Below, one piece after another: positions 50,977 to 58,737 of a DNA stretch of 64,000 nucleotides. The DNA is from PVC group bacterium (GTDB lineage Bacteria > Omnitrophota > Gorgyraeia > B26-G9). Position numbers and translations under genes: made by a program. The stretch lies in NCBI GenBank assembly GCA_024231215.1, contig JAAEQR010000202.1, forward strand, positions 302 to 64,301, written 5' to 3'. Each line of letters begins with the position of its first letter. The stretch's first letter is position 1. The notes under the pieces are model-generated. The model did no database searches. It was not told the DNA's origin and was given only the letters and a program-made list of their open reading frames with translations.

Positions 50977-51068
50977 GGGCTGGCGGAATTGGGGTACGCT
51001 CCTAGCAAAATTTTTCATTTAATTTATTAATACCACAAAACGGATTCTTATAACCACACCGCCAGCCC
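50977..51068. repeat. stem-loop element, copy A (GGGCTGGCGG...CCGCCAGCCC)
   Basis: 10-bp perfect inverted-repeat arms flank a 72-nt AT-rich loop. The first 30 nt match copy B at 53698. Confidence 0.5.
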
Positions 51069-53697: not shown

Positions 53698-53759
53698 GGG
53701 CTGGCGGAATTGGGGTACACTCCTGGAAAAGTTTCCTCTTATTAATTTGCCGCCAGCCC
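53698..53759. repeat. stem-loop element, copy B (GGGCTGGCGG...CCGCCAGCCC)
   Basis: 10-bp perfect arms with a 42-nt loop and an internal GGAAA/TTTCC hairpin. The 3' arm overlaps the stop of the 53742..53945 gene. Confidence 0.5.
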
Positions 53760-55047: not shown

Positions 55048-55061
55048 CTCATTATAATGAG
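55048..55061. promoter_or_regulatory. 14-bp palindrome CTCATTATAATGAG (copy 5)
   Basis: Exact match, 7 nt 5' of the minus-strand start at 55041. Confidence 0.5.
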
Positions 55062-55693
55062 CATTTTACTTTATAAACAATTGGTTTTTGAAACTCACCC
55101 AATATGTAATTTTTGTTATCACCTTTTGGATAAGGTTTGGTTTTATAATTTAATTTTAAAATAACCTGTTTTTTAAATTTTCTGTTTTTTATTGCAAAAA
55201 AAACATACCTGTGTTTGGCTGTCCTTATTTTTCTAAACTCACCCTGATCTTTATTTTTAGTATGTCTTGAATGTTTATTGCCTAATGTGTATTTAACAGT
55301 TCTTTGTTTTGTACAACCAGTATATAAAAAATTACACGCTTGATAAATATACCCATGATGATCCATATTCGTATCACTATAGGCAACAATTATTACATTT
55401 TCAAAACTAAGTCGCCTTAAACAAGCACCAACAAATGCACTTAATGGTTCATTTAAATCATCTACACGGCAAAGCCTATTTAATTCAAAAACCATAAAGG
55501 AGAATTCTTTACCACATATACCATTGCATAAAGTGTTAGAGGCTGGTTTACCAAAAGTGCAAACAGCTTGTAATTTGTTATCAATAAACCAACCCCACGC
55601 CCAAGAAATAGACGGCATACGTCCCGAATAGTGCTTTGGTAGTAAAAAATCCCGACATTCTTTATATGTTAAGTGTTTTATTTTGCCCCTCAT
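55052..55693 (-). CDS. possible Mom-like (acyltransferase-fold) DNA-modification protein
   Basis: 213 aa. The N-terminal KHYSGRMP...FGKP and C-terminal AYSD...HHGYIYQACNFLYTGCT blocks resemble phage Mu Mom as recalled from memory (..HYS...P..FGRP / ..YAD...GH.GTIYQAAGW.Y.G). No alignment was run. Confidence 0.3.
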   Translation of the reverse strand: MRGKIKHLTYKECRDFLLPKHYSGRMPSISWAWGWFIDNKLQAVCTFGKPASNTLCNGICGKEFSFMVFELNRLCRVDDLNEPLSAFVGACLRRLSFENVIIVAYSDTNMDHHGYIYQACNFLYTGCTKQRTVKYTLGNKHSRHTKNKDQGEFRKIRTAKHRYVFFAIKNRKFKKQVILKLNYKTKPYPKGDNKNYILGEFQKPIVYKVKCSL

Positions 55694-56422: not shown

Positions 56423-56968
56423 TTATAATTGTATTACTGCGGCAGAATATACTTTGTCTCGCAGTAATTTTGTTGGTATTGCTACATTGTGTGTGTTGTA
56501 ACCCTTGTTTTTTGCTGGCGGTATTTTAAAGTTGATTTTCCACTCATTTTTAAATTTTAACCAAACCCTTCTTAGTAATTGCCACGGAAATAAATAACAA
56601 ACTTGTGTTGGCATAAAAGCATAAGCTAAATAGTCTATTAGCAGGTCTTTTTCCATCCAGCCGGGTGCACCAGTCGTGTCATTTGATAAGTATTCAAGAA
56701 GAATGTCATTATATGTGCCCCGTCTTTTTTTCTCATCAATATATAATGTTTTACCGCTTTTTAAGTAGATTAGTCTGTCAATGCCCAAACGCTGTCCTTG
56801 GTTATTGCCTTTACATTGAATATTATAAAGCATGTCTGGAAAAGCTTTGGTATAAATTGCTTGCCAAAAATTCTCTTCACTGGCATTTTCGCTAAATTTT
56901 AAATCCTCGTGAAAATTATTTAATTTCGTTGCCATAACTTGTCCAACCCTCTCTTTCTTCTCTTGCAA
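56423..56968 (-). CDS. hypothetical protein, possible PD-(D/E)XK-like nuclease
   Basis: 181 aa. The GIDRLIYLKSGKTLYIDEKK block could be a D...(D/E)xK core. This is weak. Confidence 0.25.
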   Translation of the reverse strand: MQEKKERVGQVMATKLNNFHEDLKFSENASEENFWQAIYTKAFPDMLYNIQCKGNNQGQRLGIDRLIYLKSGKTLYIDEKKRRGTYNDILLEYLSNDTTGAPGWMEKDLLIDYLAYAFMPTQVCYLFPWQLLRRVWLKFKNEWKINFKIPPAKNKGYNTHNVAIPTKLLRDKVYSAAVIQL

Positions 56969-58016
56969 AAACTTCTGCTTTGGGTAAATCCGGATACATT
57001 TTCTCTATTATTTCATAAAACACCTGCGGTTTTTTACTGTGTTCTAATCGTGGTGCAATAACGACAGAAGCTATTCTGTCCTCTGGTTCTGGCATGGGTG
57101 GTTCGCCTATTTTTGCTATTAAAAGTAATTCGTGTTTTTGCCTTACGTAATAGCCCATACCAATTTTGTCTTTCACCCACACCATGCAGGTTCTATAATT
57201 AAAATTCCATTGGTTTATAACTTCAATGCTTTCGGCTAGTTTGGGGCTGGTTGTCCACAAAAATAAAATACAATTATTTGCTGTAATTTTGTGGATCGGG
57301 TAGTTTTTTATGTCTTCTAACTGCATTGTTGGATATTGTTTTTCAATTGCTCGGCTATGCGAAACAACGTGTTCATATTGCCACGGTGGGTCACAATATA
57401 AAACAGCATGTTTTTTATTGTCCAAGCAGTCTGTAATAATGCTTTCGTGCCGCATTATTTTTTTTTCTTGCCCTGTAATATTTTTATATATTTCATTAAT
57501 AGAACTATTTCCTTCTGTAAGGGCTTCTTTTTGCTCAGCTGTTGCCTGCTGATTTATTTTTTTTACTTTGGTTATTGTATCGTGTGAAACACCGGCCTCT
57601 TTAGCAAGTTCTTGGCGTGTTTCTATAGCTTTGGCAGAAGTCTGCGGAACCTTTTCAACCCCCCCCGCCTGTTGTTTTGTTTTGGCTTTTGCTTGATAAT
57701 ATTCTTCAAGTTGTAATGCTAAAACACTGCGTTGATATGCGTTTATATTTCTCCTTCCAAACTGATTTTTAACAATCCATATTTTTGCTGCTGCTTCAGA
57801 TTCAATAATATATTTTATTTTTTTTATGTCAAAATCAATGTCGTGTTTATGGCATATTGCATACCGATTATGCCCATCAATTATGGTATCACGCCACGTT
57901 ATAATGGGGTTTAGACATCCATTTGTTAAAATATTTTGTTCTAGTTGTTTATATTCTTGTTCGGTGAGTGGTGGTATTATTGCTTTAAATTCGGGGTTCA
58001 CGGCAATTTCTTTCAT
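56916..58016 (-). CDS. ParB-like nuclease domain fused to N6-adenine DNA methyltransferase (MT-A70/DPPW type)
   Basis: 366 aa. The N-terminal ParB/Sulfiredoxin-like region reads IDGHNRY. The C-terminal methyltransferase has a DPPW catalytic motif (LYCDPPWQYE). Confidence 0.6.
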   Translation of the reverse strand: MKEIAVNPEFKAIIPPLTEQEYKQLEQNILTNGCLNPIITWRDTIIDGHNRYAICHKHDIDFDIKKIKYIIESEAAAKIWIVKNQFGRRNINAYQRSVLALQLEEYYQAKAKTKQQAGGVEKVPQTSAKAIETRQELAKEAGVSHDTITKVKKINQQATAEQKEALTEGNSSINEIYKNITGQEKKIMRHESIITDCLDNKKHAVLYCDPPWQYEHVVSHSRAIEKQYPTMQLEDIKNYPIHKITANNCILFLWTTSPKLAESIEVINQWNFNYRTCMVWVKDKIGMGYYVRQKHELLLIAKIGEPPMPEPEDRIASVVIAPRLEHSKKPQVFYEIIEKMYPDLPKAEVFAREEREGWTSYGNEIK

Positions 58017-58033
58017 ATTTCGGCCTTTCGTAG

Positions 58034-58113
58034 AAAAAATTAAAGGCAGAAAGAGCTAAATAAGGTATAGAGATCACCTCTGCTGGTGTTGCCACTCAGC
58101 AACTCTTTCTGCC
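58034..58113 (-). terminator. rho-independent terminator (long hairpin)
   Basis: 11-bp perfect arms GGCAGAAAGAG / CTCTTTCTGCC followed on the minus strand by TTTAATTTTTT. It lies downstream of the tRNA pair and upstream of the ParB-MTase start. Confidence 0.5.
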
Positions 58114-58251
58114 TGGTTGTTTGTTGGATTGTTTGTTTAAAAAATGACATACAGCCTCTTGTTTTTATTTATACTCAACAGTATAGCATACCCACCCACC
58201 TTGTCAAGCCCTAAAAGTTGTTGTTTCAAATGCGGCGGATTCAAATAAAAC

Positions 58252-58373
58252 GGCTGGCGGGCAGGATTCGAACCTGCACGGGGAGGCGTTCTCAGCCTTT
58301 ATCCCCTCTTGACATTGGTGCCTAGGACATGCCTTCCAGCGTCTAGCCATACACATTTCCGCCACCGCCAGCC
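58252..58373 (-). ncRNA. aberrant tRNA-like element (122 nt) with canonical T-arm and acceptor pairing
   Basis: On the minus strand it has GCAGG-TTCGAAT-CCTGC (T-arm) followed by CCGCCAG-C. This pairs with a 5' CTGGCGG (or GGCTGGCGG, 9 bp) followed by U at the position-8 equivalent. A long GGGGA...TCCCC hairpin sits where a variable arm would be. No standard anticodon arm is found and the element is about 35 nt longer than a class II tRNA. Confidence 0.3.
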
Positions 58374-58381
58374 GTTATTAT

Positions 58382-58457
58382 TGGCGAATCGGCGGGGACT
58401 CGAACCCCGAACCGCTGGTTTTGGAGACCAGTGCTCTAGCCGTTGAGCTACCGACTC
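58382..58457 (-). tRNA. tRNA-Trp (anticodon CCA), CCA 3' end encoded
   Basis: Manual fold: acceptor GAGTCGG/CCGATTC (one G-U), D-arm GCTC-AACGGCTA-GAGC, anticodon arm CTGGT-CTCCAAA-ACCAG, variable CGGTT, T-arm CGGGG-TTCGAGT-CCCCG, discriminator G, then CCA. Confidence 0.75.
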
Positions 58458-58463
58458 GATTTA

Positions 58464-58477
58464 CTCATTATAATGAG
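58464..58477. promoter_or_regulatory. 14-bp palindrome CTCATTATAATGAG (copy 6)
   Basis: Exact match, 6 nt 5' of the tRNA-Trp 5' end on the minus strand. Confidence 0.5.
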
Positions 58478-58561
58478 TGTTTTAATAAAGGCACCGACCG
58501 CCACAAACAGCCGCAGAAAAGGGGGGTAAGCTGCGGTTAGGGGTCAGTCGGTGCCGCTTGT

Positions 58562-58714
58562 TTATCTAGTAAAAGCAAAATAAATAACATATAGCCACCC
58601 AAAAATGCCGTGCAAAATGGCCCACAAGATAGATTTGTATAATGACCATGAAATGGATACGGCTATAGCTGCTCCCAGCGAAATGCCTGTACTCGTTGTG
58701 GTTGAATTTGCCAT
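58562..58714 (-). CDS. small membrane protein (about 50 aa, not in track)
   Basis: MANSTTTSTGISLGAAIAVSISWSLYKSILWAILHGIFGWLYVIYFAFTR with an AAAGGAGAAAAT ribosome-binding site upstream. Confidence 0.3.
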   Translation of the reverse strand: MANSTTTSTGISLGAAIAVSISWSLYKSILWAILHGIFGWLYVIYFAFTR

Positions 58715-58737
58715 AATTTTCTCCTTTTTATAATCGT

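Follow-up and report, generated by a model that had tools for sequence, protein, structure and literature searches.

A predicted non-decoding class II tRNA mimic beside a tRNA-Trp gene, and a proposed separate methylase leader, in the early region of an orphan tailed phage

The stretch of 64,000 nucleotides (nt) from contig JAAEQR010000202.1 analysed here (referred to as the window), which covers nearly all of the 64.6 kb of this contig, was deposited as part of a metagenome-assembled genome (MAG) of a PVC group bacterium, and its gene content identifies it as the genome of a tailed phage. The minus strand of the window harbours a tRNA-Trp gene and, directly behind it, an unannotated RNA of 123 nt. 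Judged from sequence, predicted folding and comparison, this RNA is a real class II transfer RNA (tRNA) mimic, predicted to be non-decoding, which has scattered relatives. The tRNA-Trp gene, the promoter motif next to it and the hairpins of this region are ordinary phage features. With moderate confidence, we propose that the region is organised in two adjacent minus-strand units, one transcript carrying tRNA-Trp and the tRNA mimic, and a separate leader unit that belongs to a ParB-like/MT-A70 methyltransferase (methylase) gene. The initial annotation had described a single compact RNA operon made of a promoter palindrome, the tRNA, the tRNA-like element and a terminator hairpin; all four features are present, but they appear to be divided between two units. 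The features at the core of the first unit are given below, with positions in the window.

58382 to 58457, minus strand: tRNA-Trp with anticodon CCA, G73 and encoded CCA (ARAGORN; Rfam RF00005, 66.8 bits against a gathering score of 29)
58374 to 58381, minus strand: 8-nt spacer AUAAUAAC, with neither a promoter nor a terminator signal (sequence and promoter scan)
58251 to 58373, minus strand: tRNA-like RNA of 123 nt (sequence, folding and comparison with relatives)
58243 to 58250, minus strand: U-tract UUUUAUUU, immediately 3' of the tRNA-like RNA's terminal stem, the probable end of the tRNA-Trp/tRNA-like transcript (sequence)

The aberrant tRNA-like element that had been noticed 8 nt past the tRNA is indeed present, at 58373-58251. 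It is closed by the terminal stem GGCUGGCGG/CCGCCAGCC, which measures 9 base pairs (bp), or 12 bp including its flanks (inverted repeat I1, reaching 19 nt with flanks), and a U-G linker connects this stem to the D-arm. The D-arm is of the tRNA-Leu type, GGCG-GAAAU[GUGUA]UGGCUAGA-CGC, with a stem of 3-4 bp and an 18-nt loop in which the GG is kept, and it aligns with the Escherichia coli tRNA-Leu motif UGGCGGAAUUGGUAGACGC, the E. coli sequence having been confirmed. Between the variable arm of 27 nt (GGGGA...UCCCC) and the T-stem stands GU, a junction shared with tRNA-Leu, and the T-arm, GCAGG-UUCGAAU-CCUGC, has a perfect 5-bp stem and a canonical loop. An acceptor stem, a D-arm with the GG of its loop and a T-arm with UUCGAAU were all found in the element. 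At the position of the anticodon arm there are about 30 weakly structured nt, and no 5-bp anticodon stem with a 7-nt loop could be placed 1 nt after the D-stem in any of the registers inspected manually. Since a weak, non-canonical region replaces the anticodon arm, the tRNA-like RNA is predicted to be incapable of decoding.

The minimum free energy (MFE) of the tRNA-like RNA is -56 kcal/mol (z = -3.2) in one folding run and -52.2 kcal/mol in another, and in the ensemble the pairs of the terminal stem, the T-arm and the variable arm have probabilities of 0.8-1.0, except for one variable-arm pair at 0.38. The central 31 nt fold at about -3.7 kcal/mol, with many near-equivalent competing structures. 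A 7-nt loop, CCUAGGC, similar to a Leu(UAG) anticodon loop, can be drawn there on a bulged 7-bp stem; it carries C33 and is not energetically preferred. ARAGORN with default settings gave tRNA-Trp as its sole call and no tRNA or transfer-messenger RNA (tmRNA) on the 123-nt element. The best Rfam match of the element is the selenocysteine tRNA (tRNA-Sec), which reaches 27.7 bits where the gathering score is 47 and is aligned in a mismatched, shifted acceptor register; as tRNA-Sec alone survives within the tRNA clan, the RF00005 score is lower still (<29). Membership of tRNA-Sec (RF01852) was rejected, as the score is below the threshold, several pairs are mismatched, and the 6-bp D-stem, the 4-nt loop and the UCA are missing. 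Likewise, tmRNA was rejected, because acceptor position 3 is C-G and not G3:U70, the default ARAGORN run gave no such call, and the calls obtained with -ps60 are noise.

One word of the central domain also occurs elsewhere in the window: the 9-mer CATTGGTGC, the complement of GCACCAAUG in the central domain, is found on the sense strand of late genes at 7628, 27109, 34588 and 43892 (plus strand). An antisense target of the central domain through this word was considered and dropped as probably due to chance, given that one of 100 shuffles reached the total of 5 occurrences (element included) and that the word was picked post hoc.

Relatives of the scaffold were detected in viral contigs, metagenomes and bacterial genomes. 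A scan of IMG/VR with the 3' 19-mer alone (T-loop, 3' T-stem and CCGCC) yielded 38 loci, about half of which are not ARAGORN tRNAs, and many of these loci independently carry the 5' signature, composed of NNGGCGG, Y-G and a D-hairpin (GGCGG-YGGYG). Further members in viral contigs were obtained with a gapped pattern, and a pattern modelled on the tRNA-Leu-type D-arm of the window found L131 and L133/L134 in metagenomes. With a broader 5' pattern, members were found in genomes of Lachnospiraceae (L135/L136), Clostridia (L139), Acidobacteriota (L137/L140/L141) and Dehalococcoidia (L138). The terminal stem is usually 9-10 bp long in the subgroup to which the window element belongs, and the central domains of the relatives range from 20 to 137 nt, are unrelated to each other and cannot be aligned. 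ARAGORN made no tRNA call on the scaffold-family elements examined, blastn of one family member against isolated phages matched ordinary tRNAs only, and an all-against-all BLAST of the neighbouring open reading frames (ORFs) revealed no protein gene that consistently adjoins the family.

Across 13 scaffolds, 96.8% of the cells are paired and eight of the 17 pairs are changed on both sides, with compensatory changes present in all three scaffold helices. The covariation score was reached by none of 500 shuffles, and slid partners pair at 36-42%. For this comparison the window element was placed in alignment A2 with its D-loop insertion trimmed, as MAFFT misaligned it (GGCGG-UGGCGG repeat). The recurrence of an intact scaffold with a replaced centre in unrelated contigs, together with the compensatory changes, argues for selection on the scaffold. 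A wider proposal, which we put forward as tentative and rather doubtful, is that the 123-nt RNA belongs to a widespread and still unnamed class of tRNA-Leu-derived scaffolds in phages and bacteria, in which acceptor, D- and T-elements are selected and a hypervariable cargo takes the place of the anticodon arm. On this view the phage would produce the 123-nt RNA together with a genuine tRNA, as a mimic processed by ribonuclease P (RNase P), and it could serve as a decoy for a tRNA-targeting host defence or enzyme, or as a stabilising scaffold that presents a regulatory RNA.

Acidobacterial chromosomal copies possess a true anticodon arm (UGG) and A73 and pass the Rfam tRNA threshold, whereas most phage copies, that of the window among them, fail in these respects. 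The genes L137 4663-4774 (minus strand), L140 1871-1970 (minus strand) and L141 5920-6025 (plus strand), from Acidobacteriota MAGs, were missed by ARAGORN. They have a tRNA-Leu-type D-arm, a 9-bp terminal stem, a variable arm of 30-40 nt and UGG, a proline anticodon, and the Rfam tRNA scores of L137 and L140 are 50-58 bits (L141 was not in that scan). Missense tRNAs of the Pro-to-Leu kind, or else regulatory RNAs, are conceivable roles for these genes.

In Lachnospiraceae MAGs and viral contigs, irregular tRNA-like genes measuring about 116-123 nt were observed in polycistronic arrays, at L136 5551-5990 (plus strand), L133/L134, L135 and L058 526-947 (minus strand). Their central inserts share a small hairpin with a UGNNNG hexaloop, for example GUUUCA-UGCUCG-UGAAAC. 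In L058, three tRNA hits stand in tandem; they are about 118 nt long, and every one of them contains an insertion of about 45 nt. The viral contig L113 carries tandem scaffold 3' ends, GCAGGTTCGAATCCTGC CCGCTGG, at minus-strand offsets of about 1094-1257 and about 1788-2010, with an A-run after each.

Among known RNAs, the closest classical analogue of the window element is species 1 RNA of phage T4 (rnaC), the likeness being one of layout only. In T4 the order is tRNA-Arg, rnaD (species 2) and rnaC, and the window element likewise stands directly after a tRNA in a phage unit. Species 1 RNA is 139 nt long compared with 123 nt here. Its fold, like that of the window element, combines a terminal stem and extra arms (two long ones in T4) with a canonical T-arm, GGGUUCGAAUCCC, beside the 3' strand. 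However, rnaC lacks a tRNA-Leu-type D-arm and has U-U mismatches in its terminal stem, while the window element shows a clear class II layout. No sequence homology to rnaC was found; when 50,697 phage records were searched with blastn, the only matches were tRNAs that aligned with the Trp portion of the query. To our knowledge, no function of species 1 RNA is known to date.

The resemblance to bacterial class II tRNA-Leu includes the U8-G9 linker, the D-arm GGCGGAA(U/A)UGG.AGACGC, the long variable arm followed by GU, and the canonical T-loop. The element differs from tRNA-Leu by a 5-nt insertion in the D-loop and by the lack of a 5-bp/7-nt anticodon arm, A73 and CCA, and also by its terminal stem of 9-12 bp, its variable arm of 27 nt and its rejection by ARAGORN and Rfam. 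With tRNA-Sec it shares an extended acceptor stem, a long variable arm and a similar T-arm, and tRNA-Sec is its best Rfam match. The tRNA-like domain of tmRNA is comparable in having an acceptor stem and a T-arm with other structure in place of the anticodon arm; nevertheless, G3:U70, a tag reading frame and pseudoknots are all missing here, and 123 nt is far too short.

The nearest described class is that of allo-tRNAs and irregular tRNA polycistrons. Mukai et al. 2017 (PMC5389517) described tRNA-like genes of irregular build from Acidobacteria, Clostridia and phages, whose acceptor stems are lengthened and whose variable arms are long. Some of these were translationally inactive and proposed to be regulatory non-coding RNAs, and five-stem junctions and polycistrons were reported as well. 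The allo-tRNAs of that work have a 12-bp acceptor branch (8/4 or 9/3), a tRNA-Sec-like D-arm with a long stem and a tetraloop, and a real anticodon arm. Assignment of the window element to the allo-tRNAs was rejected, as its branch is 9/5 (14 bp in total) or 7/5, its D-arm resembles that of tRNA-Leu and has a large loop, and it lacks an anticodon arm. The bacterial Y RNAs YrlA and Yrn1 (PMC4201824), which occur in phages too, measure about 110-120 nt, do not decode and retain mimicry of the D- and T-arms, and YrlA of Mycobacterium smegmatis is cut by RNase P and then receives CCA (PMC4201824). The order of YrlA is T, acceptor-like loop and D, and its ends lie at the position of the anticodon stem, whereas the window element has the normal order, D and then T. 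In addition, Y RNA genes adjoin rsr (Ro60), while the family of the window element has no conserved protein neighbour. A Y RNA was rejected on account of this wrong topology, and no TROVE protein was found among the 20 ORFs scanned, which are a part of the ORFs of the window. A connection with bacterial Schlafen as a type II tRNA-specific nuclease was dropped as well, as the paper concerned does not report that activity. Since membership in none of the known classes holds, we treat the element as a variant of non-decoding tRNA-like RNA.

The tRNA-Trp gene is a genuine and ordinary bacterial-type tRNA. It scores above threshold with a full cloverleaf and a 7-nt anticodon loop, and the earlier observation that it folds cleanly and encodes its CCA agrees with ARAGORN and Rfam, both of which accept it. 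G73 is the discriminator of the bacterial tryptophanyl-tRNA synthetase (TrpRS). Compensation of codon usage, proposed before as the role of this gene, is a weak reading, as tryptophan has a single codon, UGG, which accounts for just 1.6-1.8% of the phage codons; with a single codon, compensation can mean supply alone. An equally good guess is that the gene makes up for host tRNA-Trp that a nuclease has removed, a role argued for phage tRNAs in general (PMC10264068). Because the 8-nt spacer contains neither a promoter nor a terminator signal, co-transcription of tRNA-Trp with the tRNA-like RNA is likely, as had been assumed.

Upstream of tRNA-Trp, the genome shows the following features:

58484 to 58555, minus strand: terminator-like long hairpin of the upstream gene of 50 amino acids (aa), GGCACCGAC...GUCGGUGCC followed by UUUAUU (hairpin 58555-58490; fold z = -4.7)
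58463 to 58478, no strand assigned: palindrome ACTCATTATAATGAGT, a perfect 16-mer with central TATAAT (sequence), candidate phage promoter or operator
3777, 29519, 47510, 51789, 54148, 55047, 58463 and 61810: start positions of the palindrome copies in the window, 16 nt each

The terminator-like hairpin of the upstream gene fits a fresh transcription start at the palindrome. The palindrome motif NCTCATTATAATGAGN occurs in 8 copies in the window (with <=3 mismatches) against 0.62 expected, and none of 100 shuffles attained 8. TATAAT is perfect in seven of the eight copies, five of the eight lie inside the 16-kb early arm, and the flanks, oriented by the local gene direction, read AAAAY upstream and AAAT downstream. 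In four copies a start codon or a tRNA 5' end follows 5-8 nt downstream (three early-arm copies with a start codon). A motif that recurs at 8 sites is suggestive of a signal specific to this phage. It is read most economically as a phage-specific promoter of the -10 type that gives almost leaderless transcripts and may also be a dimer-binding operator; action as a hairpin at the RNA level is a possible alternative. Regarding the palindrome promoter placed 6 nt before the tRNA in the initial annotation, the perfect TATAAT palindrome is there, but the gap is 5 nt (58462-58458) and a -35 box is missing. The associated suggestion that the primary transcript starts near the mature 5' end of the tRNA is plausible, as the palindrome with its -10 sequence lies just upstream. 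An extended form of the motif had zero matches in IMG/VR.

The upstream 50-aa gene encodes a membrane protein. Its hairpin is built like the long hairpin downstream of the RNA genes, which is an unusual form, with GC-rich arms of 9-11 bp and about 50 nt between them enclosing an inner hairpin. This shared build may be a house style of the terminators of this phage.

Downstream of the tRNA-like RNA, the second unit comprises:

58180 to 58207, minus strand: sigma-70 promoter TTGACA-16-(TGc)TATACT with an extended -10 TG (scan; 11 of 12 positions, the best of the region)
58040 to 58150, minus strand: 36-codon ORF MSFFKQ...SSFCL with ribosome-binding site (RBS) AAGAGG (ORF list), putatively coding, which spans the hairpin and whose stop abuts the 3' arm
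58034 to 58115, minus strand: long hairpin with 12-13-bp arms and a branched interior, followed by UUAAUUUUUU (fold and inverted-repeat search)
56916 to 58016, minus strand: ParB-like/MT-A70 methyltransferase gene (PF05063) with start codon at 58016 and RBS AAAGG at 58028-58024

The sigma-70 promoter lies 40 nt past the U-tract of the tRNA-like RNA and before the long hairpin, and a promoter at this position assigns the hairpin to the leader of the ParB-like methyltransferase. The arms of the hairpin, 58114-58103 and 58055-58044, comprise 12 nt each, are 100% complementary and stand 47 nt apart, and UUAAUUUUUU reaches to 58034. Compared with an intrinsic terminator, the stem and the U-run are present; however, the loop measures 47 nt and the structure is placed inside a promoter-proximal leader and ORF, 18 nt before a start codon. 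This is the start codon of the methylase. A further promoter would not fit into the 18 nt after the U-run, so that transcription of the methylase and of the genes that follow it would have to pass through the hairpin. Similar sequences were found upstream of homologous methylases in unrelated contigs, with TTGACA-17-TATACT at L049 and TTGTCA/TTGACA at L053/L055, and long structured leaders or small ORFs precede the genes in L049 (about 3790-4000), L050 (1505-1623) and L053 (3680-4000). A promoter with a structured leader or small ORF may thus be a conserved regulatory arrangement of this methylase family. The long hairpin is probably a leader element, either an attenuator or a leaky terminator, and translation of the small ORF might possibly relieve it.

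The initial annotation had seen this hairpin as a terminator with 11-bp arms and a T-run before the methyltransferase gene. Hairpin and U-run were confirmed, but the arms are 12 nt long and appear to stand inside the methylase leader. That the hairpin simply closes the RNA unit is not supported, because the tRNA-like RNA has its own stem with UUUUAUUU and the promoter at 58207-58180 intervenes.

In the arrangement that we propose, unit 1 (58478 to about 58243) would start after the terminator-like hairpin of the upstream gene, with the palindromic -10 element starting a short transcript about 2-4 nt before tRNA-Trp. The tRNA-Trp would supplement or replace the sole Trp tRNA of the host. On the same transcript, 8 nt further on, would follow the class II (tRNA-Leu-like) RNA of 123 nt, which keeps the parts of the elbow and of the acceptor/T minihelix, and the terminal stem (9-12 bp) together with UUUUAUUU probably terminates the transcript. 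RNase P and 3' trimming may free both RNAs, and the tRNA-like RNA may persist as a stable mimic, either as a decoy or partner of a tRNA-recognising factor or as a scaffold for the variable central domain. In unit 2, the near-consensus sigma-70 promoter would drive a leader of about 160 nt with the 36-codon ORF and the hairpin with its U-run; attenuation or tuning of the read-through that reaches the ParB-methyltransferase operon is the most likely effect of this leader.

Two further hairpins of the window bear on this proposal, as they share the terminal stem of the tRNA-like RNA:

50977 to 51068, minus strand: hairpin B, with a 72-nt AT-rich interior, about 20 nt before a start codon
53698 to 53759, minus strand: hairpin C, with a 42-nt AT-rich interior, about 20 nt before a start codon

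Both lie between small early genes and carry a common block, AGGAGYGUACCCCAAUU, before the 3' arm. Neither possesses a T-loop, a D-arm or an Rfam match, and the block is unmatched in IMG/VR. Possible identities of the two hairpins are terminators, minihelices of the RNase P type, and copies of a hairpin that is mobile.

Several observations weigh against the proposed arrangement. The 10-bp stem GGGCUGGCGG/CCGCCAGCCC closes these two intergenic hairpins, which are not tRNA-like, as well as the tRNA-like RNA; instead of an acceptor stem, it may thus be a module for termination or processing that is repeated in this phage. The 123-nt RNA has no encoded CCA, and its discriminator is C (with a 7-bp acceptor) or G (with a 9-bp acceptor) instead of the A73 of tRNA-Leu, which makes its aminoacylation doubtful. 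In the thermodynamic ensemble, the D-stem assigned by homology is paired with a probability of only 0.01. The agreement in covariation is partly built in, since the search patterns fix GGCGG and the T-loop, acceptor pairing was filtered, and the D-stems were picked by best pairing; the least biased evidence comes from the T-stem and the outer acceptor pairs. The palindrome has no convincing -35 box (none is consistent across the copies), and the sigma-70 scan made no call there. Finally, the phage is an orphan: the closest homologue of its methylase has 55% identity, a protein of 198 aa encoded upstream of the RNA genes matches itself alone among 5.8 billion proteins searched, and no orthologue of the 123-nt RNA was found, so that the central domain could not be checked for covariation.

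Four other explanations were weighed. A decaying class II tRNA pseudogene, derived from tRNA-Leu (possibly UAG) by insertions in the D-loop, anticodon and variable arms and retaining at most a terminator function, would explain the non-canonical anticodon arm, the missing CCA and A73, the weak fold of the central region (about -3.7 kcal/mol, with many alternatives) and the Leu(UAG)-like loop CCUAGGC, though this has C33. In addition, conservation cannot be demonstrated in an orphan phage, and inactive irregular tRNAs are documented (PMC5389517). Nevertheless, the damage is limited to the decoding part, with the terminal stem of 9-12 bp, the 5-bp T-stem, a perfect UUCGAAU and the GG of the D-loop all kept, and an intact scaffold with a replaced centre recurs with compensatory changes in many unrelated viral and bacterial contigs, and we regard a pseudogene as unlikely. 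Continued decoding is still harder to reconcile with the element, either as a functional tRNA-Ser(GGA) with a 44-nt intron or as a tRNA-Leu(UAG) with expanded arms. ARAGORN with -i -ps70 gives the tRNA-Ser(GGA), with the intron at 37/38, and other contigs hold viral tRNA hits of 112-128 nt with insertions; however, the call appears at a lowered threshold only, its stems reach -13.3 kcal/mol against -52.2 for the MFE structure, and it uses AGACG, which by homology is part of the D-arm, and ignores the variable-arm helix (pair probability 0.98-0.99, one pair 0.38). The promoter, the RBSs and the G73 of the Trp tRNA indicate a bacterial host, and we know of no protein-dependent tRNA splicing in bacteria, which counts against such an intron. 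As 44 nt is also far below the size of a group I intron, and no RNA ligase or endonuclease domain was present in the 20 ORFs scanned, this explanation can hardly be right.

The remaining two explanations concern the stems and hairpins. Because the terminal stem is part of a repeated module, a role in punctuation or termination stays alive, in which early transcripts are ended or processed at the shared GC-rich stem, and recruitment of RNase P is the sole task of the tRNA-like interior. In agreement with this, the stem recurs at 50977-51068 and 53698-53759 between small early genes, U-rich sequence follows the stem in all three elements, and in B and C the segment before the 3' arm can fold into a hairpin of 5 bp stacked on a stem of 8 bp, the geometry of a minihelix. 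On the other side, B and C have neither a T-loop, a D-arm nor an Rfam match, their T-like hairpin is not predicted by RNAfold, the U-tracts are weak, and a full D-arm, variable arm and T-arm would be needless in a terminator. We consider this improbable, and in much the same degree a single RNA operon that runs from the palindrome through tRNA-Trp and the tRNA-like RNA to the long hairpin as terminator at 58034, insulating the ParB-methyltransferase gene. A single operon would accommodate four parts in order on one strand and the perfect 12-nt arms with their U-run, and some read-through past the tRNA-like RNA is likely given its interrupted U-tract (UUUUAUUU). It is opposed by the 11/12 sigma-70 promoter with extended -10 between the tRNA-like RNA and the hairpin, by the RBS and the 36-codon ORF that span the hairpin, by the start of the methylase 18 nt past the U-run, where a promoter of its own would not fit, and by the same promoter-plus-leader layout at homologous methylases.

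Phage tRNA genes are now being reinterpreted as counter-measures against host defences that cleave tRNAs, and stable non-decoding tRNA-like RNAs such as T4 species 1 RNA have been known for decades without explanation. The locus described here is a clean example, with a regular tRNA and a class II mimic without an anticodon apparently on one short transcript. Viral contigs and several bacterial phyla show the same design, a scaffold left intact around a replaced centre, which standard tools leave unannotated. Should the scaffold RNAs prove to be expressed and processed, the use that phages make of tRNA mimicry could be tested on an accessible family. Reading the long hairpin as the leader of the methylase operon, and not as the terminator of the RNA genes, would alter the interpretation of early-region regulation.

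Regarding the surrounding genome, the phage proteins found include a GpA-type large terminase, an SU10-type portal, a Mom-like protein and the ParB-like/MT-A70 methyltransferase. The late genes are on the plus strand and extend to about 47.5 kb; beyond this point lie the early genes, on the minus strand. A megablast search of 57000-59500 against phage records had zero matches, an exact 26-mer from the 3' end of the tRNA-like RNA was not present in IMG/VR or GTDB genomes, and no tRNA or tRNA-like gene was found upstream of methylase homologues in 48 viral loci and 7 contigs. The methylase, which contains the PF05063 domain, is 100% identical to GY853_13615, and looking up its exact sequence yielded no contig. 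About 1.2 kb downstream of the methylase gene (56916-58016, minus strand), the same early operon contains the gene of the Mom-family protein (55052-55693, minus strand; Pfam E = 5e-27), and the presence of both suggests a DNA-modification, anti-restriction module.

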